The notes: generated by a model from the sequence alone, not told the origin. A stretch of DNA of 64,000 nt from Dehalococcoidia bacterium (GCA_965115955.1 OZ220473.1:1301463-1365462); one strand, 5' to 3'. Numbered from the stretch's first letter, positions 7,808-41,841 are shown. Numbers and translations: made by a program.

Positions 7808-7859
7808 AATGCCACTCTCCCGTATTATGATTTATTGACGCTTGCAACGCCTTCCTCTC

Positions 7860-8273: not shown

Positions 8274-8283
8274 GTTGTCTCCC

Positions 8284-8326: not shown

Positions 8327-8421
8327 CGCATGTCTACCAGCGCGAAACGGAGAGAGACGCTGGAGATTCCGATACCCTCCCCGGCATTCCGAAGCTGTTG
8401 GAACTGGGCTGGCGCTCTGCG

Positions 8422-9483: not shown

Positions 9484-9622
9484 CAGAAAAGCTCCTCGGA
9501 GTATGATGTTCGCAATTCTATCACGGCGGAAATTTCAACACAGACGACGCAGAGAGAGCCGGGAACGCAGGAAGGATTCCCTATATAATTCCCGATGGCC
9601 TTTATGCGCTCTGGGGTGATAT

Positions 9623-10144
9623 GTGGGATTTCCGGCGGCCTTGTTTGCTCCGTTTCAAGCCTTCCTGAACGCTCTGTTCTCGGCGCGGGTGCGAGTGGAG
9701 GGCGACAGCATGACGCCGACGCTGGAGCATGGGCAGTCGGTGCTGGCGGTGCGGCCCGTATTCCCGTGGAACCGCCTGCAACGGGGCGATGTGGTGGTGC
9801 TGGCGCCGCCCGGTCCAACGCCCGGCCTGCCGGAGGGAACGTGGTTCATCAAACGCCTGGCCGGGATGCCCGACGAGGAAATCGTGCTGGAAGAAGGGCG
9901 CCTTTACGCCGACGACCTGCTGCTGGCGGAGCTTCCCGCATCGGACAGCCGACGGTCGGGACATTCCGGCGGCGAAAGGCGGCGCGAGTGGTGGAACGGC
10001 CCCGACGAGTACTTCGTTTTGGGCGACAACCCGGCCGACAGCCGCGACAGCCGGGCCTTTGGCCCCGTGCCGTCCAGCCGCATCATCGGGCGGGTCTGGC
10101 TTATAGTCTGGCCCCCCGGCGCGTGGGGCAAAGCGCGTGGTTGA
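9623..10144 (+). CDS. lepB: Signal peptidase I
   Basis: 'GDSMTPTL' (catalytic Ser box), 'FIKRLAGMPDEEI' (Lys box) and 'YFVLGDNPADSRDSRAFGPV'. GTG start. Confidence 0.85.
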   Translation: MGFPAALFAPFQAFLNALFSARVRVEGDSMTPTLEHGQSVLAVRPVFPWNRLQRGDVVVLAPPGPTPGLPEGTWFIKRLAGMPDEEIVLEEGRLYADDLLLAELPASDSRRSGHSGGERRREWWNGPDEYFVLGDNPADSRDSRAFGPVPSSRIIGRVWLIVWPPGAWGKARG

Positions 10145-10258
10145 CCTGGGCTTGATCTACGATGTCCACTGGCCCCCCGGCGCGTGGGGCAAAGCGCCCT
10201 TCGAGTTGCCCCGCCACAGGGGGTTGGAGCTGGCCCCCCGGCGCGTGGGGCAAAGTGC
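10108..10258 (+). CRISPR. Orphan CRISPR-like mini-array: three 29-nt repeats and two 32-nt spacers, with no cas genes in the window
   Basis: CTGGCCCCCCGGCGCGTGGGGCAAAGCGC at 10108-10136 and 10169-10197. A one-mismatch copy (..AAAGTGC) lies at 10230-10258. The spacers (10137-10168 and 10198-10229) are unrelated to each other. The repeat has a CCCC...GGGG palindromic core plus an 8-nt tail. The first repeat lies inside the lepB 3' end. Confidence 0.4.
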
Positions 10259-10333
10259 GCCAGGGTGTTTAACGCAGAGGCAAAATGTAATATCATAGAT
10301 TGTTGTATCTTTTATTCGCCTGACTTGTGAGAG

Positions 10334-12157
10334 TTGTTCTTGACTGATTCGAGTTTCCCGCCTGGAGCGCTGATCCGCGACAATCGCTCCATGGTGGGCA
10401 GGGTCGTCGCGGGCAGCGGGAGCGCGGAATTCGACGGTAAGACTGTAGACCTTGTAACAGTCGACTTCTGGGGCGAAAAGCAAAGGAGGCCGGCAGACTG
10501 GCTTACCTTGCTGGAGCGAAACAGCCCAGAAGCCCTTCTGTATGACCGGCCGGCGGAGCTGGAGCCATGGGCCGGAGAAGCGCCTCTGAAGCTGGTTGCG
10601 CTGGCCCTGTATGCCAGCGGGGGAAAGGGTAAGGTCGCCAGCATCCGGCAAAAACTGGATGGGCGTGTCCCCGGGATACACTGGGAAGGCTGGTGGAAGA
10701 AGGCCCTGCCGCAGATGAGGGAGCTGCCGGAACACTTCGGCATTGCCAGGGTTGGCAAGGACAGCGAATACAGCCTTCTTACTAGCGTTGATGCCGTTCC
10801 CAGCGCAAGTCAGTTGAAACCGCCCAAAACAGCGAAGAAAAAAGGCGCAGATTCTGCCGATTGGAGAAGATGGCTGGAGTCGGGTGCTCCAGTTCAACCC
10901 CCGGGACGATTCCCGGCAAGGCAAGTGGCCGACTCCTTTCCCGTCTGGTCGGCTAAATGGTCGGATAAGGCGGTCAATGATGCCCTTTTCCAATTCATGC
11001 TGGCCGCAGAGGAATTCCTGTCTTCCGGCAACGCATCCGCCCTGGCCGCTGAGGGCTGGCTGCGGGCCGTGGCTCAGGCCGCTTTGCGCTGGCGCGAAAC
11101 CGGACAAGGGGATATCAGGGGCTACACTGCGGCGCGAGTCGGCGGAACGCTGGCCCGGCTGTCCAGAGCGACAGGAGACCGGACGCCGCAGGAGTTGCTG
11201 CTCCAGGCAGGAGCGCTGGCCGGCGAAGCCGATGCCTGGCGGAGGGGATTCGCAGCCGGGATGTGGGATGCCTTCGATGGCGAGGACGCTCGCGATCTGT
11301 ATATAGCGTCTTCCGCCGTTTTAGGGCGCCAGGCCCGGAGCGATCTGGCGCGGGAGCTGTTCTTGGCCGCCTTCGGCCCCGATTTTCCGGCTCAGCGCCG
11401 CTCTGGGCTGGACCGGCTGCTGGATGCGCTGCCGGCGGGCGAGCGGGAGCAGCTTCTGCGAGAGATCATCATATCCGCCCCCCCGGACGAGAGAGAAAAC
11501 GTGCTGGATTACGCGGACGGCAGCAGACACTTCGGCGGCGCAGAGCGGCAGGACTTGCGGTTGCTTGCTGCGTTAACGCTGGGTAACGCCCAGTCTGAGT
11601 TCGTTGCCGGAGTGTCCAGAGAGATGGCCGATGTTCTGACCCAGCCGGATAAATACAGCGAGCCAGTGCAGGCCGTTTTCCTGGAGGGGGCAATCAGGGC
11701 AGAGGCGGCGAATGCCAAAGCTCAACTGGAAGCCCGGAGACTGCAGCAGGTTTATGAAGAGCAAATCGAGCGGGAACGGCAGGAACAGGAGCGGCTCAAA
11801 CAGCAGGTGCGGGAGCGCAACGCAGACCTGGCTGCAAGGCGGGAAGAATCCCGCCTGGAAATTCGCTGGGATATGCTTATTGCTGTTGGCGAGGTGCTAC
11901 AGTCGGTATATAGCAGCAGCCCCCCCGAAGAGACGGTTTGTAATGTAGAGGCGGGGTTGCGCCTGGCGCTGAGGGCCGGCGCAGCCGAGACGCTGGATTC
12001 GGCGCCCGAAGGCTACGACGCCCGGCTGCATAAGGCAACGGAAGCGTTAACGGAATCCACCCCCGTAAGAGTGATTGCGCCGGGCGTTATAGTCCGCGGA
12101 GGAGCTCATGGCGACCGGGTTCTGCTCAAAGCTCACGTCACAAACGAGGTAGGTTAA
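10334..12157 (+). CDS. Large protein with a C-terminal GrpE-like nucleotide-exchange domain (coiled coil plus GrpE core). The N-terminal ~450 aa are unknown.
   Basis: The C-terminal ~150 aa form a long charged helix 'AKAQLEARRLQQVYEEQIERERQEQERLKQQVRERNADLAARREESRLEIRWDM', followed by 'VEAGLRLALR...PEGYDARLHKATEAL...VIAPGVIVRGGAHGDRVLLKAHVT'. By eye this lines up with the E. coli GrpE core. TTG start (10334 or 10340) is uncertain. The stop overlaps the next ATG (TAATG). Confidence 0.6.
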   Translation: MFLTDSSFPPGALIRDNRSMVGRVVAGSGSAEFDGKTVDLVTVDFWGEKQRRPADWLTLLERNSPEALLYDRPAELEPWAGEAPLKLVALALYASGGKGKVASIRQKLDGRVPGIHWEGWWKKALPQMRELPEHFGIARVGKDSEYSLLTSVDAVPSASQLKPPKTAKKKGADSADWRRWLESGAPVQPPGRFPARQVADSFPVWSAKWSDKAVNDALFQFMLAAEEFLSSGNASALAAEGWLRAVAQAALRWRETGQGDIRGYTAARVGGTLARLSRATGDRTPQELLLQAGALAGEADAWRRGFAAGMWDAFDGEDARDLYIASSAVLGRQARSDLARELFLAAFGPDFPAQRRSGLDRLLDALPAGEREQLLREIIISAPPDERENVLDYADGSRHFGGAERQDLRLLAALTLGNAQSEFVAGVSREMADVLTQPDKYSEPVQAVFLEGAIRAEAANAKAQLEARRLQQVYEEQIERERQEQERLKQQVRERNADLAARREESRLEIRWDMLIAVGEVLQSVYSSSPPEETVCNVEAGLRLALRAGAAETLDSAPEGYDARLHKATEALTESTPVRVIAPGVIVRGGAHGDRVLLKAHVTNEVG

Positions 12158-13869
12158 TGGAAATCGTAGGCATCGATTTTGGCACTACCAACGTGCGTAT
12201 CTCCACTTGGGAGCCTGATGCTCCTGACGCGGGTCTGCCGCAGTCGCGCCTGATTGGCAGGGGCGATACCACCGTCATGCCAGTGGTCATCGCGTTGCGG
12301 CGTCAGTCCGGAGGCGGAGTTTCTGTGGTGGTGGGCGAAGACGCCGATTCAATGGAGGATGGGCCAGACACGCTGGTCATACATAACATCAAGCGCTGGG
12401 CGCTGTCGGGCGACCCCTATGTGAAATGGCGCTTTGAGGCCACCGGAACGAAGTGGCCCGACTGGTGGAACCAGGAACTGGGATGCGTCGAGATCTGGGG
12501 GCAGCACTTCCAGCTTAAAAACCTCGTCGCTGAAATCCTCAAGGAGGCCGTCGGCCGCGCCAGGCTGCCCGAACTGTTCGAATGGCGAGCCGGCTGTCCT
12601 GTGCAGGCCGGTTACGACTACCGGGCGATGCTGACCAATGTCCTTTCGGAGATCGCCGGGCAGGGTAGATTGGAATGGGTTGTAGACGAGCCGGTGCTGT
12701 TCCTGGCGGCAGCGCAGCGCAACATTGACCCCGACTCCGGCTTCAGGCTTCAGGGCCTGTATCTCGTCTACGACCTGGGAGGGGGTTCCTTCGACTGCGC
12801 CCTGGTGGAAGTGCAGGAAACCGGAGAAATGGTCGTGTACGGCGCCGATGGAGATCCGTTGCTTGGCGGCTCCAATATTGACCGGGAACTGAAGGCCAGG
12901 CTGGGCGGGGCGGAAAACCTGTTGCGGCTGGCCAAAGAACAAGTGTCGCCGGGTAATCCCAGCGTCCCCTTTGGCGGAAGCGTCGCCCTGACGTGGGCCG
13001 ATGTTGAGGCGGAGATGAAGAGCGGCAAATTTGTTCAGAGATCGCTCATGGCCCTGCGGGACGCCTATATCAGCGCCAAGTCATTGGAGAAGCGCTACGG
13101 CGAAGAATCGGGCGACGGCCCCGGAGACATTATCCTGCATAAGGATGACGACACAGGCGAAGTTCGGTTTGTCCGCCAGCTTGGATACACGGATATGAGC
13201 CGGGAAGTAGACGGAGTAATCATGTACGGCGGCCCGACACGCTCACCTTACTTCGCCGAAAACCTGGCCCTCTGGTTCGGGGAAGCCAATGTGATGCAGG
13301 CCCGCGACTTGATTGGAGGCGTAACAGATCCGGAACTGACCGGAGTAAGCATGGGCGCCTGTTACTTCCATCAAAAGCAGCATTTCCATGAAGTTCCCAG
13401 CAGGCTCCCTTATCAGGTGACGCTGGAAAACTCCCAGACCGGAGAAAGGGTTGCATACCAGCCCCATCAGCATTTCGTAGATTCGTTCCAGCCTTCGGAG
13501 CAGTATGAATCGTCGTGGCTGCAGCAGGAGACCCACAACCCACAGAGCTACGAGCTGACTATCGCAAACCCGGATGGGGTAGTGCTGAAGCGTAAGTGCA
13601 TAGACGGCTACCTGGAGCCGGACGGCAAGCAGCCGGCTACGGGGCTGCGGCTGATCATCGACCGCCTGGGCCCGGTATGCGTGGAGAAGAAGTCGGAAGG
13701 CGTTGGCCTGCCCTGGACCAGGAAGGTCACGGTGGTGGAAAACCCGCCCTGGCAGACCGAAGAACAGCGCAAAATGCTGGAAGATCTGCGCCAGAGGCTA
13801 CGAGAGCGCGAAGAAGCCAGGCGACGACAGACTTCGGCGGCTATTGACCACGCAGACCGGGGTGCATAG
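12157..13869 (+). CDS. Divergent Hsp70/actin-fold ATPase (not canonical DnaK)
   Basis: Phosphate-1 'GIDFGTTN', phosphate-2 'DLGGGSFD' and adenosine motif 'YGGPTRSP'. The C-terminal ~170 aa are unlike the DnaK substrate-binding domain and lid. The protein ends in a charged helix 'EEQRKMLEDLRQRLREREEARRR'. Confidence 0.75.
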   Translation: MEIVGIDFGTTNVRISTWEPDAPDAGLPQSRLIGRGDTTVMPVVIALRRQSGGGVSVVVGEDADSMEDGPDTLVIHNIKRWALSGDPYVKWRFEATGTKWPDWWNQELGCVEIWGQHFQLKNLVAEILKEAVGRARLPELFEWRAGCPVQAGYDYRAMLTNVLSEIAGQGRLEWVVDEPVLFLAAAQRNIDPDSGFRLQGLYLVYDLGGGSFDCALVEVQETGEMVVYGADGDPLLGGSNIDRELKARLGGAENLLRLAKEQVSPGNPSVPFGGSVALTWADVEAEMKSGKFVQRSLMALRDAYISAKSLEKRYGEESGDGPGDIILHKDDDTGEVRFVRQLGYTDMSREVDGVIMYGGPTRSPYFAENLALWFGEANVMQARDLIGGVTDPELTGVSMGACYFHQKQHFHEVPSRLPYQVTLENSQTGERVAYQPHQHFVDSFQPSEQYESSWLQQETHNPQSYELTIANPDGVVLKRKCIDGYLEPDGKQPATGLRLIIDRLGPVCVEKKSEGVGLPWTRKVTVVENPPWQTEEQRKMLEDLRQRLREREEARRRQTSAAIDHADRGA

Positions 13870-15630: not shown

Positions 15631-15677
15631 ACAGGGGGGCTCGATGCCGGAGGAAAGCATCCTTGCCGGGTTCCCGC

Positions 15678-16148
15678 TTACACTGTCGGTTGGCCCAACC
15701 CGCCGCAGGGGGCAGGAACCGCCTCGTCCTCGCCGGGCCAGGGGGGCGTCGTGTGGCACAGGAAGCGCAGGGAGGCGCCCGGGTCGGCGGTGAACTGGAA
15801 GCGCCAGCCGGCGGGGATGACCAGCGCATCGCCCGGCGATACATCCTGCGGCGGGACGGATGCGGCTCTGGCGTCCGGCGGGCAGCGCCAGACGCGGCCC
15901 CAGCCCTCCAGGATGTACCATATCTCTTCCACCGTGCGATGATGCACTGGGCGCGAGACCTGGCCGGCGGGGAGCGTTACCTCGACCATGCTGCTTCTGG
16001 AGGCCCGATGGCGTCGGTCGGCCAGCAGGCGTATCTCCGACCCGTCGGGCGCCGCCGCGTCGGGGTGGACGGCCCGTCGCGACAGCGGGAGCGGCGGAGT
16101 TCTGCCCGTCGCGTTCCCGGAATCAGCCGGAAGTCCGCTTTCTCTCAC
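15678..16148 (-). CDS. Cupin domain protein
   Basis: 'HHRTVEEIWYILEGWGRVW...GDALVIPAGWRFQF' cupin motifs. Confidence 0.7.
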   Translation of the reverse strand: MRESGLPADSGNATGRTPPLPLSRRAVHPDAAAPDGSEIRLLADRRHRASRSSMVEVTLPAGQVSRPVHHRTVEEIWYILEGWGRVWRCPPDARAASVPPQDVSPGDALVIPAGWRFQFTADPGASLRFLCHTTPPWPGEDEAVPAPCGGLGQPTV

Positions 16149-16173
16149 GCCGTCTCTGCGTCTGCGAGGCCGA

Positions 16174-16947
16174 TCAGGATGTCGCCGGCTTGCGGCCCTT
16201 GCGCTCCAGGAAATCGGCGAACCCCTCCTCGACGGTCAGGCCTCGGAAGCGGCCCTGCCGCGCCTCGATCTCGGTCCAGAACTGTTCCTCCAGCGAGTTG
16301 CCGGTATGCTCAATCAGGAGCTGCTTGATGTTGTTGACGCCCTCCGGCCGGTTTTTGGCGATGCCGGCGGCGACTTCGATGGTCTTGTCCATCAGGTTTT
16401 CCGAGGGAACCAGGTGATTGAGCAGGCCGATATGATAGGCTTCGTCGGCGAAGACCTCGCGGCCGCTGTAGAGCAGTTCCTTGGCCTTGCCCCATCCCAC
16501 CAGCGTCGGCAGGCTCCAGGTGGCGTTGAGCTGGCCGTAGTTGACGGCCAGGAAGCGAAAGCTGCTCTTCTCGCAGCCGATCAGGAAGTCCATGCTGGTA
16601 GCCATCACCGTGCCGCCGCCGTAGCACAGGCCGTTGACGGCGCCGATAACGGGCTTGGCGCAGGAGGCCATGTGCCAGGTGTACCTGGCGCGCTGGGCGG
16701 CCGCCTCGTCGCGCTGCTCCTGGGTCAGCTCGCGGTTCTCGTGGATGTCGGCTCCGGCGGAGAATGCCCGCTCGCCGGCGCCGGTGACGATCACCGCGCC
16801 GATGCCGTCGTCGGCCTCTGCCTCGGTGAGAAACTCGTCCACCTCGCGCACCAGCTTCAGGCTGAGGGCGTTCAGCACCTCAGGCCGGTTCAGGGTGAGG
16901 ATGGCGACCCGGTCTACCCGGTCAGTGGAGATAACCTCAAAGGCCAT
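16174..16947 (-). CDS. Enoyl-CoA hydratase/isomerase (crotonase) family
   Basis: 'VAILTLNRPEVLNALS...VIVTGAGERAFSAGADI...GAVNGLCYGGG'. ATG chosen at 16947. Confidence 0.85.
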   Translation of the reverse strand: MAFEVISTDRVDRVAILTLNRPEVLNALSLKLVREVDEFLTEAEADDGIGAVIVTGAGERAFSAGADIHENRELTQEQRDEAAAQRARYTWHMASCAKPVIGAVNGLCYGGGTVMATSMDFLIGCEKSSFRFLAVNYGQLNATWSLPTLVGWGKAKELLYSGREVFADEAYHIGLLNHLVPSENLMDKTIEVAAGIAKNRPEGVNNIKQLLIEHTGNSLEEQFWTEIEARQGRFRGLTVEEGFADFLERKGRKPATS

Positions 16948-17033
16948 GACTGCTATGACTCCTTTGCCGCCCTGAATTAAAAGCAGGGCGCTCCTGGATT
17001 TGCCAACGGCGCAGCCGGTACGCTGCGATGGAA

Positions 17034-17084
17034 ACCGGGTTAAATAATACCGGGTTAAATAATAAGGAAACCGGGTTAAATAAA
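17034..17084. repeat. Three direct copies of ACCGGGTTAAATAA(T/A) in an A/T-rich divergent promoter region
   Basis: Copies at 17034-17048, 17049-17063 and 17070-17084, between the crotonase (-) and MTase (+) starts. Confidence 0.8.
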
Positions 17085-17196
17085 ACACAACAGCCAGCGC
17101 AATGCAAACCCGGCCCCAGGGCGGCTGACATTTGGCTATCGTCCGCTTTCCCGGCCCGTGCTAAAATCTTGCCAGCCAGCTTTCGGCAGGGGGGCC

Positions 17197-18264
17197 ATGG
17201 CGACAGCAGACACGACAGGGGCTTCAAGTGCGGCCAAAATCTCGGATACCTCCGTTGAACAGACGATACGAATACGGGCTGCCGTCAATAAGTGGATTGC
17301 CGACAACCTGCCTGAACAGCGGCGTCACTTGAGCCACACTCTCCCCACCGCAGGATCCGATGGGCTGTGGCATATCGAACTGTTAGCCAGGAGAGACAAG
17401 CGGTCTTATCCCCTCGGTAAGCTTGTCGTTGGCGAAGACCAGGGCGTTTCCCTGTCCAAAGGAACGCCTGAAAGTGTGGCCGCGAATCTGGAGATGATTG
17501 TGAACCATGACCGGATACACGCTGACGCCGGCGCATCTCTTTGCGGAGACCTCTACGACTTCCGTTTTGCTGATGGTATCTCGGGGTCTGCGGAACTTGA
17601 CGATCGGTCGGTGGATTTGCTGCTTACCGACCCGCCGTACAGCATCAGCAATCCCTATACCTGCGAAAGCCAGGTGCCAAGGCGCTTGAGGAAAAACGGC
17701 ACGGATTTCATCATGCCCAAAGGACACTTCGGCCACTGGGATTATGGATTTTCCCCCGCGGAATGGACATCCCTGATCCTGCCCAAAGTGCGGGGCTGGG
17801 CGGTCATTTTCTGCGCTCAGGAGCAGATCGGAGAGTACTCCGAAATCCTCAGGGCCCAGAAGTTCGTTGCCGTGGGAACACTGGTATGGCAAAAAACAAA
17901 TCCAGTGCCTTTCAACCATGCTTACAAGCCGATCAATGCTTGGGAAGCGCTGGTAATCGGCAAGCGGTCAGGCGCCAAATTCAATGGGCATGTAGTCCAC
18001 AACGTATTTCTGTACAAGTCGCCATCCCCGCAGGAGCGCATACATTCGACTCAGAAGCCTATCGGCCTGATAGCCGAGTTCATCGAACTGTTCAGCAATC
18101 AAGGAGATTTCATCCTGGACCCCTTTGCCGGAAGCGCAACGACAGTGGCGGCCGCTATCGGATTGCAGAGACGGGTCTTGGCTTTCGAGAATGATCCTGA
18201 ATCATTTCAGGCAGCATCCAAACGTATTATCTCCAAAACGAGTCTCTTATATGAGCAACGCTGA
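17197..18264 (+). CDS. DNA methyltransferase, beta-class, DPPY type (probably N6-adenine)
   Basis: Motif IV 'LLLTDPPYSISNPY' precedes motif I 'ILDPFAGSATT'. The region is visibly lower in GC than its flanks. Confidence 0.85.
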   Translation: MATADTTGASSAAKISDTSVEQTIRIRAAVNKWIADNLPEQRRHLSHTLPTAGSDGLWHIELLARRDKRSYPLGKLVVGEDQGVSLSKGTPESVAANLEMIVNHDRIHADAGASLCGDLYDFRFADGISGSAELDDRSVDLLLTDPPYSISNPYTCESQVPRRLRKNGTDFIMPKGHFGHWDYGFSPAEWTSLILPKVRGWAVIFCAQEQIGEYSEILRAQKFVAVGTLVWQKTNPVPFNHAYKPINAWEALVIGKRSGAKFNGHVVHNVFLYKSPSPQERIHSTQKPIGLIAEFIELFSNQGDFILDPFAGSATTVAAAIGLQRRVLAFENDPESFQAASKRIISKTSLLYEQR

Positions 18265-18961
18265 TTTCTATGACGCTTTTGGTAAGGACACAAAAGTGTA
18301 TCAGGTTTATCAGGCACTAAAAGATTGGCAATGGCACTGCCTCGAATGTGAATATGCTCATGTTGGAACAACGCAGATCGCTGGTGGAGCCGGAATACAA
18401 GGACTTCAAAGAGGTGCGAAATCCCGATCGGGTATGAGTATAAATAGCGGAAATCATTACTGCGCAACGTGCGATAAGCAGACACGCCACGACCGTTGGA
18501 CTGGCAATTTGGTATCTGCGATTCCTGCGCCTTCCATGCCTGCGGAGTTTGCTTTGAGAGTAGTTAACTTGCTCGGCTCTCGTGATGTGGTTGAACAAAC
18601 GGAACGCCCGCCCAATCAACTAACCGTTGACCACAAGTTGCCCATGCTGAGATGGAATGCGAATACAAGGGCCAGCCAATCCAGTTTTGCTGATATGACA
18701 GATGAAGATATTCGAGCGAAGTTTCAGTTGTTGAAGGCGTCCAATGGCAGCGTAAGCCACAATTTGTTAAAGAGCCGGGCTTGCGAGCGGTGCTTCAGAA
18801 CTGGACGCAGGGGTACGCCCTTTGGCATCGCCTACTTCTATGAAGGAACTGAAAGATGGCAGACGGATGACCGCACAGACCCGCAAGGATGTGTCGGCTG
18901 CGGTTGGTATGACTTTGACTTGTGGCGCGCCCGTCTCAATGACTTTGTACAGTCAAAATGA
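18251..18961 (+). CDS. HNH (beta-beta-alpha-Me) endonuclease with zinc ribbons; probable cognate type II restriction enzyme
   Basis: Its ATG overlaps the MTase 3' end by 14 nt. Motifs: 'WHCLECEY...YCATCDKQTRH', 'TVDHKLPMLRWN...HNLLKSRACERC', 'CVGCGW'. Confidence 0.65.
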   Translation: MSNADFYDAFGKDTKVYQVYQALKDWQWHCLECEYAHVGTTQIAGGAGIQGLQRGAKSRSGMSINSGNHYCATCDKQTRHDRWTGNLVSAIPAPSMPAEFALRVVNLLGSRDVVEQTERPPNQLTVDHKLPMLRWNANTRASQSSFADMTDEDIRAKFQLLKASNGSVSHNLLKSRACERCFRTGRRGTPFGIAYFYEGTERWQTDDRTDPQGCVGCGWYDFDLWRARLNDFVQSK

Positions 18962-25432: not shown

Positions 25433-25587
25433 TGGTCAATTCTCCTGACATCTGCTAGGTGTGCCTGCCAGATTCCTAGGGTACAATCGGGGAAAAAGCG
25501 GGTGATGTCAAGCAGGCGCCAATCAGCGCGCCGGGATAGTCTGCAAAAGCTCGAGTCTGCCAATAGAGATCAAGCGGGAAAGCGGAC

Positions 25588-27639
25588 ATGCAGTACGATC
25601 ACAAGAGAGCGATTGAGCTCCTCCGCATCGGCTCCGGCAAACCGGACGCCCAATTCCGGGACGGGCAGGAAGATGCTATCCGCCATATTGTGGAAGGGGG
25701 CGGCAAGCTCCTGGTCGTCCAGAGGACCGGATGGGGCAAAAGCTTCGTGTATTTCATTGCAACCAGGCTGCTGCGGGAGGGCGGCACAGGCCCGGCGCTG
25801 CTGATTTCGCCGCTGCTGTCGCTGATGCGCAACCAGATTGCGGCGGCAGAACGCATGGGCGTGCGAGCGGAAACCATCAATTCCGATAACCCCGGCAAAT
25901 GGGGTGAGGTGGAGGCGAAAGCCCGCAACAACCAGGTGGATATACTTCTCGTCTCGCCGGAACGGCTGGCAAACGACAGGTTTCGTGAAGACTTTCTACC
26001 CAATATGGCCGATCGTCTCGCGATGCTGGTAATAGACGAGGCGCATTGCATATCCGACTGGGGCCATGACTTTCGCCCTGATTATCGGCGGATTGAAACA
26101 ATCATCCGAAACCTGCCGCCCAATTTCCGGATACTGGGAACTACCGCCACCGCCAACGATCGAGTGGTGAACGACCTTGTCGAAGTGCTGGGGCCGAACA
26201 TCGAAACCCAGCGCGGCGATCTTGGTCGGCCTTCGCTCCTGCTGCAAACCATAAGGATGCCCGGCCTGGCAGAGCGGATGGCGTGGCTTGCCGAGCGGCT
26301 AAAGGATATTCCAGGGTCGGGAATAATCTACACATTGACCAAGCGGGACGCATATCAGGTAACCCGGTGGCTGAAGTCGCAGGGGCTGAACGTTGAAGCA
26401 TACACAGGAGATGTCGAAAACCGGGAAGGGCTGGAAGAAGCCTTGCAAAAGAACCAAGTTAAGGCTCTGGTTGCGACAGTGTCTTTGGGCATGGGTTACG
26501 ACAAGCCGGATTTGGCCTTTGTCATTCACTTCCAGATGCCTAAATCAGTGACCGCCTATTATCAGCAGGTAGGCCGCGCTGGGCGGGCGGTGGATGCAGC
26601 CTACGGCGTGCTGCTGAGCGGGGAGGAGGACATTGATATTAACAATTATTTTATTGATTCAGCCTTTCCAACACCGGGGGAAGTTGAGCAAGTTCTATCT
26701 GTTTTGAGAGGATCCCCTCGAGGGCTCTCTGAATTCGAAATCTTAAGTCTTACTAACCTCAAGAATGGCCGCCTTGACCGCGTCACTAAGATCCTGTCTA
26801 TGGAGTCTCCCGCTCCCCTAGTCAATCAGAGTAGAGGATATTATCCGCTATGGCATATTACTGCTGCACGATTGTCCAGCGAATTTTGGGAGCGTATCGA
26901 GCGCATAACTGTGGTACGAAGAAACGAGCAAAAACAAATGCTCGAATATATTGCCTTGAAATCGGGGCATATGGAATTTCTCATACGGGCGTTGGACGGA
27001 AACCCGGAGAATGTAACGGCGCCCAACCTAAAGCCATTGCCTGCCGGTAAAAGCCAGGAAATGATCCGGAAGGCGACTGAGTTTATCCGTATCAGTCTGT
27101 CAATCGAACCTCGCAAGTACAAAGGGAACTACCCTTGCAGCAGAGGGCAGTCTCTTTGCCTTTGGGGAGATCTGGAATTCGGAAAACTTATCCAGGACGG
27201 CAAATATAGATATAACCGCTTCTCGGACAAGCTGGTAGATGCGTCGGCGCAATTGATACGACAGCGGAACTTTCGGCCTTCGCCTGCCTGGATCACCTGT
27301 GTCCCTTCGCAAAGACGCCCAAATCTCGTCCCAGATTTCGCTCTGCGACTGGCCGAATCCCTCGACCTTCCCTTTAGCGCTGCACTGAGAAAAGTGGCTA
27401 ATCGTCCTGAACAGAAGAGTATGCCCAACGGAGTTCAGCAAAGGAAAAATGTAGAGGCGTCTCTTGAAGTAGTGTCTGCCAACCTGATGCGCGGGCCAGT
27501 CCTGCTGGTGGACGACATGGTGGATTCATGTTGGACTTTCACCATAGCTGCTTCTCTTCTGCGCAACAGCGGGTCTCCGGTGGTTTTCCCATTTGCCTTG
27601 GCCAACTCTAGACCTGGCATGAGTGATATGGATGAATAG
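25588..27639 (+). CDS. RecQ-family SF2 DNA helicase fused to a C-terminal ComF-like phosphoribosyltransferase (PRTase) domain
   Basis: Walker A 'QRTGWGKS', 'VIDEAHCISDWGHDFRPDY', 'TATA' and 'QQVGRAGR'. The C-terminus has the PRPP-binding loop 'PVLLVDDMVDSCWT'. The middle of the gene is noticeably A/T-rich. Confidence 0.8.
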   Translation: MQYDHKRAIELLRIGSGKPDAQFRDGQEDAIRHIVEGGGKLLVVQRTGWGKSFVYFIATRLLREGGTGPALLISPLLSLMRNQIAAAERMGVRAETINSDNPGKWGEVEAKARNNQVDILLVSPERLANDRFREDFLPNMADRLAMLVIDEAHCISDWGHDFRPDYRRIETIIRNLPPNFRILGTTATANDRVVNDLVEVLGPNIETQRGDLGRPSLLLQTIRMPGLAERMAWLAERLKDIPGSGIIYTLTKRDAYQVTRWLKSQGLNVEAYTGDVENREGLEEALQKNQVKALVATVSLGMGYDKPDLAFVIHFQMPKSVTAYYQQVGRAGRAVDAAYGVLLSGEEDIDINNYFIDSAFPTPGEVEQVLSVLRGSPRGLSEFEILSLTNLKNGRLDRVTKILSMESPAPLVNQSRGYYPLWHITAARLSSEFWERIERITVVRRNEQKQMLEYIALKSGHMEFLIRALDGNPENVTAPNLKPLPAGKSQEMIRKATEFIRISLSIEPRKYKGNYPCSRGQSLCLWGDLEFGKLIQDGKYRYNRFSDKLVDASAQLIRQRNFRPSPAWITCVPSQRRPNLVPDFALRLAESLDLPFSAALRKVANRPEQKSMPNGVQQRKNVEASLEVVSANLMRGPVLLVDDMVDSCWTFTIAASLLRNSGSPVVFPFALANSRPGMSDMDE

Positions 27640-28981
27640 TTCAATATCCGATAACACGAAAGCTATCCTGCTGCTGACTGCGCCGCTGATTGTTGGCAAG
27701 GGACAAGGGGCAGACAGCCCTTTGTCCCTAACGGAGTACAACAAGCTGGCTCGCAATCTTTGCGCAGCGGGGATGGAGCCGGTGAATCTGTTGCAGCCCG
27801 GCTGGGAGGAAACGCTGGCGGATTTTGACCTGAAGCGGATTGGACGGTTGCTGGAGCGCGGCTTTCTGCTTAGCCAGGCCATCAGTCGCTGGCAGGAAAG
27901 GGCCATTTGGGTGGTGAGCCGGGCGGATGACGAATATCCGCATCGCCTCAAAAAGCGGCTTGGGCGAAAGGCGCCGCCGGTGCTATATGGCTGCGGCAAT
28001 CAGGAACTGATGGAAATGGAACACCGCGGCCTTGCCGTGGTCGGCTCTCGAAACGCCGGCGAAGAACTGCTGGAGTACTCCAAAGACATCGGCGCTCTGG
28101 CATCCGAATCGGGCGTCACCATAATATCCGGCGCGGCCAGAGGCGTGGACCAGGCGGCAATGCTGGGAGCATTAAGCAAACAGGGAACAGCGATCGGCGT
28201 GCTGGCCGGTGACCTGGAAAGGGAAGCGCTGAACCCCGAACACCGCGAGATGCTGATGGAAGGGAATCTGGCCCTGATTTCCCAATACGATCCCAAGGCA
28301 GGCTTTCATGTCGGCAACGCGATGGGGCGCAACAAGCTGATTTACGCGCTGGCCAACGCAGGGCTGGTGGTGGAATCCGACAACAGCAAGGGCGGCACAT
28401 GGACCGGCGCGGCGGAGCAACTGGATAAGCTGCGTTTTGTGCCGGTTTACACCCGTTCGACGGGCGAGATTGGCGCCGGTCTGCGGGGGCTGCAGCAGAA
28501 AGGCGCAAGGCGCTGGCCTGCCCCGGAGACGCCCGATGCGCTGCGGGAGTTGCTGGCTGACGGCCCTTCTGCTGCGGCAATGGCGGCCCCGGAGCAGGCA
28601 TCTCTCATCCCGGCCTCAGAGAGCGCTGCTGGATTTTGCGAGCGCCAGTCTACAGAACATGAAACGGCGGACAGGCCGGAGCTGGAAGGCGATGTTCGGG
28701 AGGATTTGTCTCCTGCCGAAGATTTGTTCGCCAAAGTTGAGCAGCTTATAAACTCAATGTCAATGGAGGAACCCGTAAGGGATGCTGATGTCAGCGAGCG
28801 TCTGCAAATCGGGAAAAAACAGGCAAAAGACTGGCTCGATCGCCTGGTGAAAGAAGGGAAGTATCGGAAGCTCAACCGGCCGGCCCGTTATGAGAAGGTT
28901 ATCCAGCCGGGGTTCAATGGCTTACGCGCCGGCATTGACGCCCCTGCCCCAGGTGTGCGACACGAATTCCGTAATGTGTAG
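27632..28981 (+). CDS. DprA/Smf (SLOG-fold) family protein with a C-terminal winged-helix-like extension
   Basis: 'LAVVGSRNAG...IISGAARGVDQAAMLGAL...GTAIGVLAGDL...GRNKLIYALA...GGTWTGA'. The ATG overlaps the RecQ-PRTase stop by 8 nt. Confidence 0.8.
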   Translation: MNSSISDNTKAILLLTAPLIVGKGQGADSPLSLTEYNKLARNLCAAGMEPVNLLQPGWEETLADFDLKRIGRLLERGFLLSQAISRWQERAIWVVSRADDEYPHRLKKRLGRKAPPVLYGCGNQELMEMEHRGLAVVGSRNAGEELLEYSKDIGALASESGVTIISGAARGVDQAAMLGALSKQGTAIGVLAGDLEREALNPEHREMLMEGNLALISQYDPKAGFHVGNAMGRNKLIYALANAGLVVESDNSKGGTWTGAAEQLDKLRFVPVYTRSTGEIGAGLRGLQQKGARRWPAPETPDALRELLADGPSAAAMAAPEQASLIPASESAAGFCERQSTEHETADRPELEGDVREDLSPAEDLFAKVEQLINSMSMEEPVRDADVSERLQIGKKQAKDWLDRLVKEGKYRKLNRPARYEKVIQPGFNGLRAGIDAPAPGVRHEFRNV

Positions 28982-29120
28982 CGTTGCCCTGCGCGTTGAC
29001 GGCCCTGCCGCCATCCCCTAAACTGATGCTGGCTTAAACCGTTCTGTAGAGGGCTTGTCATTCTGGCCTTCCCCTCGAGCCGGCAGGGAGGCATTGCAGT
29101 GAACAAAAGGGCGCAAGCGC

Positions 29121-31211
29121 ATGGCTGAACCGAATATCCGCGGGGGCGATGTCGCTCTCTTTATCGACTGGGAAAATTTCAAGATAAGCCTTGCCGCCGG
29201 CAGCCGCTCTCCCAATCTCTCGGCGCTCAAAGAAGAGGTCTCCAACCAGGGGCGGGTGGTGGTCGCCAAGGCCTACGCCGACTGGGTGACCCGGGCCCCG
29301 GAACTCCGCGGCGCCAGCCAGTTCATCAACGACCCGCCTTCTCTCTATGCCGCAGGCATCGAGCCTGTGTTCGTTCCCACACGCATCCCCTCGACCCAGG
29401 CCTCCTCGGCCAACGGAATCCGCACCTACCGCGTCAAGAACAGCGTCGACGTCAAGATGACCGCCGACTGCATCGAGTGCGCCCACTCCTACCCGAACAT
29501 CGGCACTTTCGTGCTGGTGTCGGGCGATTCCGACTTTCTCCACGTGGTCAACGCCCTGCGCACCATGGGCAAGCAGGTGGTCATCATCGGGGTGTCGTGG
29601 AGCACGTCGCGGCGACTGGCCGACCAGGTGGACTCGCTGCTGCTCTACGACAAGGACGTAGACCCGCTGGCTCCGCAGCCGGCGGTGCTGCCGCAGCACA
29701 CGGCAAAGCAGGAAGCCCCCGCCGAAGCGCCGGAACTGGCCGAGGCGCTCAGGGCCATCGAGGAGATCATCCGGGACGAGCGGGCTGCCGGCGGACAGCC
29801 TCTGCTTACCTCTATCAAGCAGCGGATGATGCGCCGCTACCCCAGTTTCGACGAGAAGAAGCTGGGCTTTTCGGGCTTCAAGAAGCTGATGGCCCGCGCC
29901 GCCGAGGACGGCAATATCAAGCTGATCCACTCAGGCTTGGTGGACTGGGCCATTATGGCCGATGAGGAGACGCCGGAAGGCACTATTGAAGAGACCCCCG
30001 CAGGCGTGGCTTCCCGGCCCAGCCGCCGGCGGGGAAGCCGCCGACGCCCCGGCGCACAACGCGAGGGCGATGCCTCCGATGGCGAGCAGGAAACCATCGA
30101 GGCGCCCGCCGAGGAGTCGGCGCCGGTTGCGCCGGCCTTCGCCGAGATGCTGGAAGAGACCGCGGCTACCGACTTTGAGCCGCCCTGGGATACCGGGGTT
30201 GTCGATGCTTCGGAGACCATGGAGGCAGGGCTCGAAGTTTTGGATCTCTCGGAGGCGGAGCCCGGCGAGCTGGAGGCGTCCGCTCCCCTGCTCGACGCCG
30301 GCGAAGAAACCGGCGCCGTTGAAGACGACTCCGGAACCTCCGGGGAACCGGCGACCGCGTCCGATGACGCCGAGCCGGAGGACGGTTTTGGAAATGACCC
30401 GGAACTGGCCGCCGCAGCGCGGGAGGCGCTCTCGCCCCTGGCTCTGCCCGACGATCCCGGAGACGGCCGAAACCCGGACAGGATATCCGACCTCATCGTG
30501 ATGTCCGATCACCTGGAACGACGGCAGGGCGTGGAGCAAGTGTCCTTCAACTACCTGGTGTCTGAAGTCTGTTCCGCTCTGGAGCAGGGACTGGCGGCCG
30601 GCAATGAGCAGATCGCCCGGCGATGGGGCGCCGTAGTCGCGCGCGACTACGTGAGCAAGGCGCTGCGAGGCCTCTCGGAAGGGGGCTTCTTCCGTAGGGC
30701 GGCGCGCTATTGGCGCGACGAGACCAGCGGCCGCCGCCGCCAGCGTCGCACCTTCAACCTGGACCGGGAGAACGAGCTCGTCGGCCGCATCCTGACGGCA
30801 AGGCTGGGATCCGCCGCCGAGACCGCTCCTCCGGGCGGGGCTGTTCCTCCGGGCGAGGCCGCTCCTCCGGGCGAGGCCGCTCCTCCGGGCGAGGCCGCTC
30901 CTCCGGGCGAGGCCGCTCCTCCGGGCGGGGCTGTTCCTCCGGGTGAGACCGCTCTTTCGGGCGAGGCCGCTCCTCCGGAGGAATCATTGTCGGACGCTGC
31001 CACAGTTCAGCCGGCCGTGGCCGAAGAAGATCTGAGGGCAGTAGAGCAACTGGCCCTGGTGGACGATGGCTCCGCCGCGGAGCCTGAACCTGTCGCAGAA
31101 GACCCGACTGCGCCTCAGGCCAACGACGAAGATGAGGGTGAGGAGTACGACGAGCCGCAGCCTCGCACCGTCCGACGCCGTCCCTTCACCAGCCGCCTGT
31201 TGCGGAGTTGA
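29121..31211 (+). CDS. NYN (LabA-like) ribonuclease domain plus OST-HTH/LOTUS domain protein with a long acidic/Pro-rich repetitive C-terminal region
   Basis: NYN acidic motifs 'VALFIDWENF', 'NSVDVKMTADCIE' and 'FVLVSGDSDF'. LOTUS-like segment 'LTSIKQRMMRRYPSFDEKKLGFSGFKKLMARAAEDGNIKL'. Confidence 0.75.
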   Translation: MAEPNIRGGDVALFIDWENFKISLAAGSRSPNLSALKEEVSNQGRVVVAKAYADWVTRAPELRGASQFINDPPSLYAAGIEPVFVPTRIPSTQASSANGIRTYRVKNSVDVKMTADCIECAHSYPNIGTFVLVSGDSDFLHVVNALRTMGKQVVIIGVSWSTSRRLADQVDSLLLYDKDVDPLAPQPAVLPQHTAKQEAPAEAPELAEALRAIEEIIRDERAAGGQPLLTSIKQRMMRRYPSFDEKKLGFSGFKKLMARAAEDGNIKLIHSGLVDWAIMADEETPEGTIEETPAGVASRPSRRRGSRRRPGAQREGDASDGEQETIEAPAEESAPVAPAFAEMLEETAATDFEPPWDTGVVDASETMEAGLEVLDLSEAEPGELEASAPLLDAGEETGAVEDDSGTSGEPATASDDAEPEDGFGNDPELAAAAREALSPLALPDDPGDGRNPDRISDLIVMSDHLERRQGVEQVSFNYLVSEVCSALEQGLAAGNEQIARRWGAVVARDYVSKALRGLSEGGFFRRAARYWRDETSGRRRQRRTFNLDRENELVGRILTARLGSAAETAPPGGAVPPGEAAPPGEAAPPGEAAPPGEAAPPGGAVPPGETALSGEAAPPEESLSDAATVQPAVAEEDLRAVEQLALVDDGSAAEPEPVAEDPTAPQANDEDEGEEYDEPQPRTVRRRPFTSRLLRS
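30823..30980 (+). repeat. In-frame 18-nt tandem repeat (about 8 copies) encoding (A/V)PPGEA
   Basis: GCTCCTCCGGGCGAGGCC units inside the NYN-LOTUS gene. Confidence 0.85.
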
Positions 31212-31223
31212 CGAGCGGAAATC

Positions 31224-31330
31224 GCCCCAGGACGAACAGTCTTTCCCCTGGGGCTTTCCTGCTTGGGTGCGGTGCACGCAGGTTTTGGAACCAGGATGAG
31301 CAGTATTTTCCCTGGGGTTTTCCTGCCCTC
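31224..31330. terminator. Two imperfect 35-nt direct repeats, each a hairpin plus T-run, between convergent genes
   Basis: GCCCCAGG (31224-31231) pairs with CCTGGGGC (31247-31254), followed by TTTCCT. The second, weaker copy lies at 31292-31326 and is followed by TTTT. Confidence 0.5.
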
Positions 31331-31331
31331 C

Positions 31332-39592: not shown

Positions 39593-39750
39593 CACCCTGT
39601 CCCCATAATGACCGCCGGAATTCCTTTCCCTTCGGGACGATGAGGAGAGGGAGATGAGCAGGCTGTGTCAGCTCCGGCAAGAAGCCGGAAATCCCGCGGC
39701 GGCGCATTAGAGAGTCAGCGTTGCCCATTCAGAAACGAGAGAAGAGAAAT

Positions 39751-40035
39751 ATGCCAAATTCCGAGCACGGCAAGGTTGAAGCGGAAATCGTCTACTGCGT
39801 AGCTTGAGGTTACTTCCCGGTCGCCACGTGGCTGGCGATGGAGTTCTTCAAGTCCGACGCTCCGGGAGATGTCGCCATCAAGATGACCCCCTCCGACAGG
39901 GGGCGCCTTGAGGTTTACCTGGACGGCGAAATGATATTCGACCGCAAGGCGGACGGCGGATTCCCCGACCTCGGCAAGGTCAACGAGCTCAAGATGACCA
40001 TCGCCGAAAAGCTGTTCGATCTCGAAGAAGCCTGA
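39751..40035 (+). CDS. SelW/SelT/Rdx-family selenoprotein with a CxxU motif (UGA at 39805-39807)
   Basis: Reading from ATG 39751 gives 'MPNSEHGKVEAEIVYCVA[TGA]GYFPVATWLAMEFFK...'. This joins in frame to the tracked 65-aa ORF (39838-40035). The Rdx-family 'IxYCxxU/C' redox motif sits at the expected N-terminal position. Confidence 0.75.
39820..39839 (+). promoter_or_regulatory. SECIS-like hairpin downstream of the SelW-like UGA
   Basis: (G)TCGCCA (39820-39826) pairs with TGGCGA(T) (39833-39839). The loop is CGUGGC. The loop starts 19 nt after the UGA. Confidence 0.5.
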
Positions 40036-40128
40036 GAACCGTCCTTTTGGCCGCGACGGGTTCACGCCATGTTTCATGCGCCGTGACGAGTTCATGCCTG
40101 GTATGGCCACAGTACGCTGAATCATCTG

Positions 40129-40167
40129 AAAGGGAACCCTGCCGCTATTACGGGCAGGGTTCCCTTT
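40129..40167. terminator. Bidirectional intrinsic terminator
   Basis: Perfect 15-bp stem AAAGGGAACCCTGCC / GGCAGGGTTCCCTTT with a 9-nt loop. The A- and T-tracts are part of the stem ends. Confidence 0.7.
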
Positions 40168-40314
40168 GGCGCAGCGGCGGGAAACAAGCCGGCGGCCATT
40201 GCGTTGGGTTATGGATATGTGTCGTTCCTCCATCTTACGGCCATTGCCGCGCTGATGGTGTTCCGGAATGACGCGGGTAATCGCAATTATCGCGGGTATC
40301 GCGAGATGGATATG

Positions 40315-40352
40315 ATCAGGTTCCCGGCGCCGCATGGCGCCGGGAGCCTGAT
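40315..40352. terminator. Long hairpin downstream of the FN3 protein gene (no U-tract)
   Basis: 17-bp stem (one G-U pair) ATCAGGTTCCCGGCGCC / GGCGCCGGGAGCCTGAT with loop GCAT. Confidence 0.4.
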
Positions 40353-40391
40353 GTTGCCGGTCGGGTGTAAATGTCCTAACTAAGCAGGCTG

Positions 40392-41330
40392 TTACCCGCC
40401 CTCGCCGCCGGGTTGGGTCCAAATCACTCTCCGGAATTTCGACCAATTGTTGCACTCGTCGGAACGAGAAAACACCAGCACTGCATACTCGGTTCCCGGA
40501 ACCAGGCCGCTGAGGCTTACCGTCTTATTGCTCGTATTGGTGAAGTCAATGACCACGGTTAGGTCCTTCACCTTGACGCCGGGATCCCATAGCACCACCT
40601 TGTAGCGATATTGCTGTGGGTTTGCCGGAGAGCACCGACGCTCTTTATTGCCAGCCCAGGACCTGGTCCAGGACACCGTGGCGGTCGTCCCCTCCGCCGG
40701 GGTTACTGTCAGATGGCGCACTTTCAAGGGCCTGTTCTTCTTTGGCATCGGGGTGTTGGCAGGCACGGGCGTTGACTCACCACCCTGGCCTGAATTTCCT
40801 TCCGTAGGCTCCGGCGTAGTCGGCTCCGGAGTAGAGCCGCTCGTCCCCGCCTTATAGACGTTGGACCATGGACCGGCGCCGGCCGGGTTGACAGCCCGGA
40901 TGCGAAAGTCGTGCTCCACCCCGGGCGGCAGAGCCCCGCGCGACAGACCCGAAGTGTACATATAAGCGAAAGCTATTGTTAGGGGCCCCACCTCTACGAT
41001 CCGTGATGGCAGCCATTCCGAACCTTTGCTCGGACGGCTCTGTATCTCCTGTCCAGTGATTGAATCGTCGTCAACACCTTGCCATCTCAAAACCAGGCTC
41101 TGGTTCGAGACCCAGTGGGTTATTATCACAGGAGCCTCAGTAGGGGGAGATGAAGCAGGCGTCGGCGGCACCTCCGTCTGACTGTTCTGCGGGGTAGGCG
41201 TGCTGCCTTGAGCCTGGGCAGCCGATGCGGTTACTGCCATTACGGCGGCAGCCAGCAAGGCCGCGGCCGTGATTATGGCCCAGTTGATAACGCCTCCTCG
41301 CCGAGACAAGCGTCTGAATACTTCAGTCAT
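40392..41330 (-). CDS. Secreted or membrane-anchored protein with two fibronectin type III-like domains
   Basis: RBS GGAGGAGGAG precedes ATG 41330. Signal/anchor segment 'INWAIITAAALLAAAVMAVTASAAQA'. FN3-like 'FRIRAVNPAGAGPWS' and 'LVPGTEYAVLVFS'. Confidence 0.7.
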   Translation of the reverse strand: MTEVFRRLSRRGGVINWAIITAAALLAAAVMAVTASAAQAQGSTPTPQNSQTEVPPTPASSPPTEAPVIITHWVSNQSLVLRWQGVDDDSITGQEIQSRPSKGSEWLPSRIVEVGPLTIAFAYMYTSGLSRGALPPGVEHDFRIRAVNPAGAGPWSNVYKAGTSGSTPEPTTPEPTEGNSGQGGESTPVPANTPMPKKNRPLKVRHLTVTPAEGTTATVSWTRSWAGNKERRCSPANPQQYRYKVVLWDPGVKVKDLTVVIDFTNTSNKTVSLSGLVPGTEYAVLVFSRSDECNNWSKFRRVIWTQPGGEGG

Positions 41331-41841
41331 ATCCGTAACTCCTCCTCCTTTTTCAAGCACACATCCGCCCCGTTTGCGGAAATCGCCGGATGACAGGCAG
41401 TCAGTAGCGTCTACCTTCCCGGGCGATAGTTCCTGTGGATACTATCGCCTGTTGCTGTTGCGTGTCAATACACGGAGCCCGGGCGGCAGCATCGCGCTAA
41501 AAGCATCATTGAGAAGGCGCCTGAATATTTTTCCGGGACACCGCGCGCACTTGCGTCGCTTGCGGATCAGCCAGCCCTCCGTTCAGACCCGATTAGACCA
41601 GGCGTTGAGCTTTTAGACCTGGCGCCGCCGCAGCCCCGAGTCAAGGGGGGCGGCTGTTGATTTCCCCGAATTTTGAGTTACACTGTCGGCGCAAGCCTCT
41701 GCCATACATGGCGGCGTGATTAGCTGCTGCCGCCGGCGCGTCACACAGATCGAGGCTCATGCTCTCCGGCTGCTGTCGGTCCGGCAGGGTGCACTGCTTT
41801 CGCTTTGCGGTTTCTGGCCCTGCCGCCTGCCCTGAAGCGCA

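Follow-up and report, generated by a model that had tools for sequence, protein, structure and literature searches.

In a stretch of 64,000 nucleotides (nt) from a Dehalococcoidia bacterium (GCA_965115955.1 OZ220473.1:1301463-1365462), which is called the window here and to which all coordinates refer unless another locus is named, two overlapping genes were found at positions 25588-28981 that belong to PsyrTA, a system identical with RqlHI (bioRxiv 10.1101/2022.05.11.491447). With a probability of roughly 0.82, this block is a two-gene PsyrTA toxin-antitoxin/abortive-infection module that was horizontally acquired as a bare cassette of ~3.47 kb and is located in a defence-gene hotspot of Dehalococcoidia. 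Gene 1 (psyrT/rqlH, 25588..27639, plus strand) encodes a RecQ-like superfamily 2 (SF2) helicase of 683 amino acids (aa) fused to a phosphoribosyltransferase (PRTase), the predicted toxin, and gene 2 (psyrA/rqlI, 27632..28981, plus strand) encodes a DprA-like (SLOG) protein of 449 aa when read from its ATG, the predicted antitoxin. Gene 1 belongs to the PsyrT family and gene 2 to the PsyrA family over their full length, and they share the domain order, the catalytic motifs and the gene arrangement of these families. An initial annotation of the block had described it as a compact three-domain relative (helicase, PRTase and DprA). This novelty was not borne out; the window pair is a further copy of the already described PsyrTA/RqlHI and a full-length member of that named family. 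The toxin-antitoxin logic, in which toxicity comes from the PRTase and the DprA-like protein acts as antidote, had been missed in that annotation.

Profile searches with the PADLOC models assigned both proteins over nearly their entire length. The PsyrT model (PDLC03928) matched gene 1 with an E value of 2.5e-252 (837 bits; residues 1-675 against profile positions 1-685 of 689) and the PsyrA model matched gene 2 with an E value of 3.1e-127 (423 bits; residues 1-421 against positions 1-395 of 398). The runner-up models were DpdF, with 272 bits in the helicase part only, and ShosA, with 96 bits in the Rossmann part only. DpdF, and with it the Dpd system, was rejected, its matches being limited to the helicase part and scoring far below PsyrT. 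A pair on the E. coli IncF plasmid NZ_OX030731, annotated there as "RecQ family helicase" and "DprA", reached 1019 and 577 bits with the PsyrT and PsyrA models, and full-length alignments of the window proteins with this pair gave identities of 46% for PsyrT and 35% for PsyrA. On the same plasmid (locus L162, positions 2691-12770), the pair was observed between the genes of a type I restriction-modification operon, arranged as hsdM - hsdS - psyrT - psyrA - hsdR.

Full-length relatives were spread over many phyla. The gene for PsyrT was immediately followed by that for PsyrA in 73 of 80 species-representative loci, likewise from many phyla; several of the unpaired PsyrT loci ended at contig ends and one was from an actinomycete. 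This agrees with the pairing already in print (PMC4670107). A full-length copy was present in ten plasmid records, and none was found in phage records. At one locus from a metagenome-assembled genome (MAG) of Chromatiales (L054, positions 8001-11345), the PsyrT frame seemed to continue into PsyrA without a stop codon, which would reflect either a fusion of toxin and antitoxin or an error of the assembly.

The helicase core of PsyrT comprises residues 1-360 (25588..26667, plus strand) and gave Pfam matches to DEAD (residues 25-196) and Helicase_C (residues 237-334). Motif I was found as GWGKS at residues 48-52, with K51, motif II as DEAH at 150-153, with D150, directly followed by CISDWGHDFRP at 154-164, motif III as TATA and motif VI as QQVGRAGR at 326-333; in the alignment with RqlH, K51 and D150 correspond to K49 and D148. 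All four motifs are intact, as are the aspartates of the phosphoribosyl pyrophosphate (PRPP) loop VLLVDDMVDSCWT at residues 638-650, and the 683-aa RecQ-type protein of the initial annotation was recovered, with its listed motifs, as the open reading frame (ORF) 25588..27639. The NCBIfam model recQ_fam scored 236.7, above its cut-off of 219.8. The recQ equivalog TIGR01389 scored 264.8, far under its cut-off of 640.2, and covered residues 21-359 only, and no Pfam match to an RQC or HRDC domain was obtained in PsyrT. With the equivalog score under its cut-off and neither RQC nor HRDC present, a housekeeping RecQ was rejected as an identity for gene 1. The core is followed by an RqlH-specific linker together with a remnant of the RecQ zinc module (residues 361-500; 26668..27087, plus strand), which is the part with the lowest GC content, 0.49.

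The C-terminal ComF-like PRTase domain comprises residues 501-683 (27088..27636, plus strand) and carries the PRPP loop. Within this loop, D643-M-V-D646 corresponds in the alignment to the DIVD motif, and RqlH is no longer toxic when that motif is mutated; LLVDDMVDS of the window protein is aligned to LLVDDIVDS in PsyrT of E. coli. The domain received no Pfam call. Searches with the single sequence were too weak for a PRTase assignment (E ~1e-3 with NCBIfam; E 0.067 with phmmer against the PDB), and it took a profile of the family and a structure model to make it. A profile built from 54 C-terminal domains matched only PRTase folds in the PDB, with PRPP synthetase at 1.3e-5 followed by HGPRT and PurF. 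The AlphaFold model of the C-terminus had a predicted local distance difference test score (pLDDT) of 82.8, and its best Foldseek match was ComF of H. pylori (7p0h, E 1.8e-5), followed by APRT, PurF and HGPRT; ShosT (8zvd) was matched with a query TM-score (TMq) of 0.62. Family profile and structure model agreed, confirming the ComF-like PRTase fold that had been noticed initially in the C-terminus.

PsyrA starts with an N-terminal helical domain (27632-27901, plus strand), predicted by the AlphaFold model, which is followed by the DprA-type Rossmann (SLOG) domain at residues 93-310 (27908..28561, plus strand), delimited by secondary structure and pLDDT of the same model. Its motifs are GSRNAG (138-143), SGAARGVD (166-173) and GTWTGA (255-260), and residues G138-S139-R140, G171 and D173 are invariant across the family alignment. 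Pfam assigned DNA_processg_A with an E value of 9.8e-39 as well as SLOG cluster4. The dprA equivalog TIGR00732 scored 98.3, below its cut-off of 191.15. A linker predicted to be disordered occupies residues 320-356 (28589..28699, plus strand; pLDDT ~30, alignment columns unconserved), and a winged-helix (helix-turn-helix, HTH) tail follows at residues 361-422 (28712..28897, plus strand). The latter was modelled with three helices (361-374, 384-391 and 395-407) and a two-strand wing at pLDDT 80-91, which bears out the winged-helix-like tail proposed initially, and it is kept in homologues. A further C-terminal tail of 22 residues, predicted to be disordered, occurs only in the window PsyrA (28913-28978, plus strand). 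Foldseek matched the PsyrA model to DprA (3maj, 3uqz) and to ShosA (8zva, E 3.5e-12), and then to the SLOG relatives LOG and MoCo carrier protein. At the level of the predicted structure, both the fold of DprA/SLOG proteins and the winged helix of the tail were thereby confirmed. The DprA/Smf identity and the motifs given in the initial annotation held, with the length corrected from 450 to 449 aa. The linker is indeed acidic (14 D/E against 4 K/R in residues 301-360); it is not an extra element, as had been assumed, because a linker varying in sequence and length is found in all family members.

The two genes overlap by 8 nt (27632..27639, plus strand), the psyrA ATG being at 27632-27634 and the psyrT TAG at 27637-27639. 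The overlap, described in the initial annotation and here read directly from the sequence, is a layout compatible with translational coupling, and close or overlapping toxin and antitoxin genes recur throughout the PsyrTA family. An alternative psyrA start, a GTG at 27623, would yield 452 aa; homologues begin at the MN.. of the ATG. The block had also been called A/T-richer than its flanks, and this was reproduced, with a GC content of 0.49-0.61 across 25.5-29.0 kb against ~0.64-0.70 in the flanks. The GC content at third codon positions (GC3) was 0.60 in psyrT and 0.67 in psyrA, compared with 0.74-0.87 in five measured neighbour genes, and GC3 was atypical in all three Dehalococcoidia PsyrTA copies examined. 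Upstream of psyrT the cassette has a leader of 71 nt (25517..25587, plus strand) without counterpart in empty sites. Terminator-like matches were no more frequent than in shuffled sequence.

The genes flanking the block are core genes unrelated to it, as stated initially: SDR, MFS and HxlR genes upstream, and genes for a glycoside hydrolase (GH), a glycosyltransferase (GT) and PurL downstream. Core proteins of the window were 90-95% identical to proteins of Dehalococcoidia MAGs. The order ADH - SDR2 - (HxlR - MFS) - SDR - [gap A] - NYN - [gap B] - GH - GT - PurL was conserved wholly or partially in most of 80 species. Gap A, the spacer between SDR and NYN (25433-29120 in the window), was empty, with a length of 187-310 bp, in ~20 species of Dehalococcoidia/Chloroflexota. 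PsyrTA was found in gap A in three genomes only, i.e. the window, L119 (the same genome as L081) and L125, corresponding to two of the 80 species of the synteny set plus the window. Elsewhere gap A contained other cargo: DarT with Macro; a restriction-modification set of Dcm, Vsr and EcoRII-C; DndB-like with a D12 methylase; an N6 methylase with an HSDR_N domain beside an IS3 element; insertion sequences; HD with HD_assoc; an M78 peptidase; DUF433 with DUF5615/PIN; DUF6414; HNH; and cassettes without known domains. It had been suggested to check whether the pair sits in a variable region, and the empty sites in some species together with the different cargo in others indicate an acquired insert. 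A fourth Dehalococcoidia relative of PsyrTA (L001) was situated at an unrelated locus.

The limits of the insert, ~25517-28990, were derived from the alignment of empty with filled sites. At the left edge, a conserved intergenic element, GGTACAATCG..N..TGTCAAGC (25480..25516, no strand assigned), is left over from the spacer between SDR and NYN in its undisturbed form. The empty sites of L103, L152, L153 and L157 can be aligned with this element, and the similarity stops at ~25516. At the right edge, a promoter scan revealed the NYN promoter-like element TTGACG-N17-TAAACT (28996..29024, plus strand), which lies outside the system and also immediately precedes NYN in species whose site is empty. 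The insert of ~3.47 kb consists of the 71-nt leader and the two genes. No integrase, transposase or tRNA gene was found in the cassette, the only tRNA of the window being at 59.6 kb, and repeats flanking the cassette were short, imperfect and at chance level. Gap A in L082, L085, L090 and L098 was observed to hold a three-gene cassette without Pfam match, one gene of which also lacked a PADLOC match, and two of these genes were also present in L099. Gap B, the spacer between NYN and GH (31212-31331 in the window), was variable as well, ranging from ~12 bp to ~2.7 kb, and in three species (four loci, e.g. L081 at 15651-18141, L097 and L103) it contained a pair of an M78 peptidase and DUF4411. 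With both gaps varying, the NYN gene is a core gene between two variable sites.

The psyrTA pair of P. syringae was reportedly first recognised by Sberro in 2013 through a bias in cloning, solely as toxin and antitoxin, with toxicity of the lone toxin and its neutralisation, and the ShosTA system is credited to Kimelman (2012) and Millman (2022) as well as to Rousset (2022). Millman et al. (2022) included PsyrTA among two-gene toxin-antitoxin systems conferring phage resistance (bioRxiv 10.1101/2022.05.11.491447). For RqlH-RqlI of E. coli F11, Russell & Mulvey (2015) described that the gene following downstream, in many cases with an overlap, codes for a DprA-like protein that ends in an HTH, and showed that the two proteins co-precipitate and that RqlI neutralises RqlH (PMC4670107). 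In that work the PRTase domain without its partner led to SOS induction, filamentation, mutagenesis and growth arrest, for which the acidic PRPP loop was required, and rqlHI deletion mutants had no fitness defect. A mechanistic paper devoted to PsyrTA after 2015 was not found in the literature. The window pair resembles these systems in its toxin, built of a RecQ-like helicase, a linker and a ComF-like PRTase, and in its antitoxin, built of an N-terminal domain, a DprA Rossmann domain, a variable linker and an HTH. It also shares the position of the toxin gene in front with overlapping stop and start codons, the conserved helicase motifs and PRPP-loop aspartates, and the occurrence in variable or defence genomic contexts. 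It differs in its identities of only 46% and 35% to the E. coli pair, in its host from Dehalococcoidia (Chloroflexota), in the absence of four zinc cysteines from PsyrT and in the extra 22-residue disordered tail of PsyrA.

A further relative is RqlH of M. smegmatis, a stand-alone 3'-5' single-stranded DNA (ssDNA) translocase/helicase with a RecQ-like part and a ComF-like PRTase domain, the latter being dispensable for the translocase/helicase activity (PMC3378886). This protein and the window PsyrT have the same order of helicase, linker, zinc-module position and ComF/PRTase domain, a similar length (691 against 683 aa) and matching ATPase motifs. The mycobacterial protein, however, keeps its tetracysteine zinc module and, as most Gram-positive homologues, has no RqlI/PsyrA partner (PMC3378886; PMC4670107).

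The tetracysteine zinc-binding module between the linker and the ComF domain was used by Ordonez et al. (2012) to define the RqlH clade (PMC3378886), and the window PsyrT departs from that definition. The homologous segment is present at residues ~452-500 (26941-27087), contains no cysteine and has a 5-residue deletion (SGHMEFLIRALDG, residues 459-471). In an alignment of 76 members, all four RecQ zinc-ligand cysteines were absent from the window PsyrT and from ~30 of the 76 relatives, which belong to several phyla. Relatives with at most 50% identity keep the C..CxxCxxC pattern, and the cysteine-free group consists of closer relatives with the same 5-residue deletion. Zinc-free relatives were paired with PsyrA, with L025 as the single exception, and the PADLOC PsyrT profile matched the zinc-ligand-free window protein over its full length. 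The loss of the zinc ligands was treated as a subclade variation within PsyrT. Such a natural variant could help to separate the roles of helicase and PRTase. A more far-reaching suggestion, which we consider rather doubtful, is that the zinc-free subclade would represent a distinct PsyrTA subtype in which DNA engagement by the helicase is lost or changed and sensing is left wholly to the DprA-like partner, and, separately, that the SDR-NYN spacer would be a true defence hotspot whose unannotated cargo includes new defence systems, the three-gene cassette of L082, L085, L090 and L098 being an example.

The two-gene anti-phage system of DprA and PRTase which had been mentioned in the initial annotation is that of Rousset et al. 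(2022), described from P2-like prophage hotspots and now called ShosTA (PMC9122126), a sister system of PsyrTA. Like the window pair, ShosTA has a PRTase-based, PRPP-dependent toxin and a DprA-like antitoxin, and filamentation and DNA-damage phenotypes are known from both ShosTA and PsyrTA relatives. The models agree as well, the window PRTase superposing on ShosT (TMq 0.62) and PsyrA matching ShosA (E 3.5e-12). In contrast to the helicase of the window PsyrT, the N-terminus of ShosT is a pyrophosphatase-like domain (PMC11961720; PMC12961424); ShosA lacks the PsyrA-type tail, and gene 2 scored 96 bits with ShosA against 423 bits with PsyrA. Membership in ShosTA failed on both genes, the N-terminus of gene 1 being a RecQ-like helicase and the best profile of gene 2 being PsyrA.

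Toxicity, neutralisation and phage protection would be expected of the window pair by transfer from its relatives. In an uninfected cell, PsyrA would be made together with PsyrT through the overlapping stop and start codons and would keep the PRTase in check. Upon infection, the DprA-like antitoxin might be titrated, displaced or not replenished, possibly, by analogy with ShosA, because of phage ssDNA, replication intermediates or a shut-off of host protein synthesis. The freed PsyrT might then exert a PRPP-dependent activity, positioned on DNA by its helicase, and damage DNA or nucleotide metabolism, so that replication of both cell and phage would be stopped. The trigger and the mechanistic steps lean on ShosTA, and the sensing or processing of foreign ssDNA, as proposed initially, would likewise follow for PsyrTA by analogy with that system.

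Several points weigh against an abortive-infection module working in this way. ShosT and ShosA, from which the trigger and mechanism are borrowed, do not bind each other (PMC11961720; PMC12961424), unlike RqlH and RqlI. Defence is not a general property of PsyrTA either: with the copy of E. coli NILS69, protection from the tested phages could not be detected, and growth was impaired by it. A cooperative and beneficial role of RqlH and RqlI in DNA processing was also considered by Russell & Mulvey (PMC4670107). A consensus scan of the 71-nt leader for a sigma-70-like promoter was negative, so that a promoter of the cassette was not found. Finally, because the four zinc cysteines of the M. smegmatis and E. 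coli-type proteins are missing, the zinc-free helicase of the window may behave differently or be impaired.

An unlikely alternative is that of a selfish addiction (toxin-antitoxin) module, with the pair persisting in the hotspot by post-segregational killing and no real anti-phage gain. A role of this kind would agree with the original knowledge of PsyrTA as a toxin-antitoxin pair only, through cloning bias, with the lack of a fitness defect in rqlHI deletion mutants and with the presence of other toxin-antitoxin pairs in the same hotspot (DUF433 with PIN-like, DarT with Macro, M78 peptidase). Phage resistance has, however, been reported for a PsyrTA system (Millman et al.), the hotspot also contains restriction-modification genes and the E. 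coli pair lies within a type I restriction-modification operon; addiction and defence are, moreover, mutually compatible. A purely addictive role was kept as a minor alternative because native E. coli PsyrTA showed no detectable defence in one study. Even less probable is a housekeeping or accessory module for DNA repair and recombination, in which a RecQ-like helicase would act with a DprA-like RecA loader, along the lines proposed for RqlH of M. smegmatis and in the cooperative model of RqlHI. In its favour, genuine 3'-5' helicase activity is known from RqlH, RecA is loaded by proteins of the DprA family and bound by ShosA (PMC11961720; PMC12961424), gene 1 counts as a RecQ family member by NCBIfam, and the model of Russell & Mulvey has RqlH and RqlI acting jointly on DNA. 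Against this stand the occurrence of PsyrTA at the site in only two of 80 species plus the window, with unrelated defence cargo or nothing in the others, the atypical GC3, the recQ equivalog score far below its cut-off (264.8 against 640.2) with HRDC and RQC missing, and the loss of the zinc ligands; the toxicity of the PRTase in relatives is also hard to reconcile with repair.

A natural-transformation module equivalent to ComFA (helicase), ComFC (PRTase) and DprA was judged highly improbable. The parallel between these proteins and RqlH/RqlI is already in print (PMC3378886; PMC4670107), and in the window the PRTase fold is nearest to ComF, with H. pylori ComF as its best structural match, and gene 2 has the DprA Rossmann domain recognised by Pfam. 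The helicase is, however, RecQ-type rather than ComFA-type and is fused to the PRTase, gene 2 misses the DprA equivalog cut-off (98.3 against 191.15), and the pair, patchily distributed and mobile, resides inside a restriction-modification operon in E. coli. The context was not that of competence: comEA, comEC and pilus genes were absent from all six annotated contexts inspected. A competence locus was rejected on the missed dprA cut-off and on the lack of competence genes in the flanks of the window or in the six related contexts. The view that the block is of a conflict or defence type and not a competence locus, expressed in the initial annotation, was upheld by these absences and by the matches to the PsyrTA profiles.

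The finding adds a PsyrTA copy in Dehalococcoidia, a group from which few members have been cultured and whose phages have hardly been studied by experiment. It also illustrates that automated annotation as "RecQ family helicase" and "DprA" conceals a defence/toxin-antitoxin module, and that the SDR-NYN interval is a clean, lineage-specific hotspot with precise junctions, which can be mined for more cargo. Its practical value is modest and the understanding of how PsyrTA works is unchanged.

The gene downstream of the cassette (29121..31211, plus strand) encodes a protein with NYN and weak OST-HTH/LOTUS domains by Pfam and had been regarded as a possible third part of the system. Within the lineage this is a core gene, not a component of the system: it was syntenic in 80 species of Dehalococcoidia/Chloroflexota, only two of which have PsyrTA. 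No NYN gene was found near PsyrT in any of the 80 GTDB loci, either by tblastn or with a custom NYN hidden Markov model (HMM). Absent from these PsyrT loci, being a core gene and having its own conserved promoter-like element, NYN was rejected as a third component. Among five extra loci, which brought the number searched to 85, L165 gave the only match of the HMM. At this locus, a gene for a 209-aa NYN-domain protein (positions 6230-6859) was observed directly upstream of PsyrT, with 28% identity over 75 aa to the NYN domain of the window. This neighbourhood is probably a coincidence, because of the low identity over a short stretch and because it was a single case among the 85 loci. The C-terminal half of the window NYN protein contains a run of near-perfect PPGEAA / APPGEA repeats (30700-31010) in a long acidic low-complexity region, which aligned poorly between species.

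Outside the cassette, a second low-GC patch (17158-18619; GC 0.49-0.56 over 17.0-19.0 kb) was observed in the window. It contains an N6/N4 DNA methylase gene (GC3 0.62) that matched PADLOC type II methyltransferase models with 107 bits, and an adjoining ORF of 100 aa on the opposite strand without a Pfam match; an orphan methylase or else a small restriction-modification system could be present here. A further ORF with a low GC3 of 0.58 (51721-52434) carried a DUF3800 domain and had no PADLOC match. Other low-GC3 ORFs with little or no annotation were located at 39715-41360, 46840-47568 and 49050-49784.

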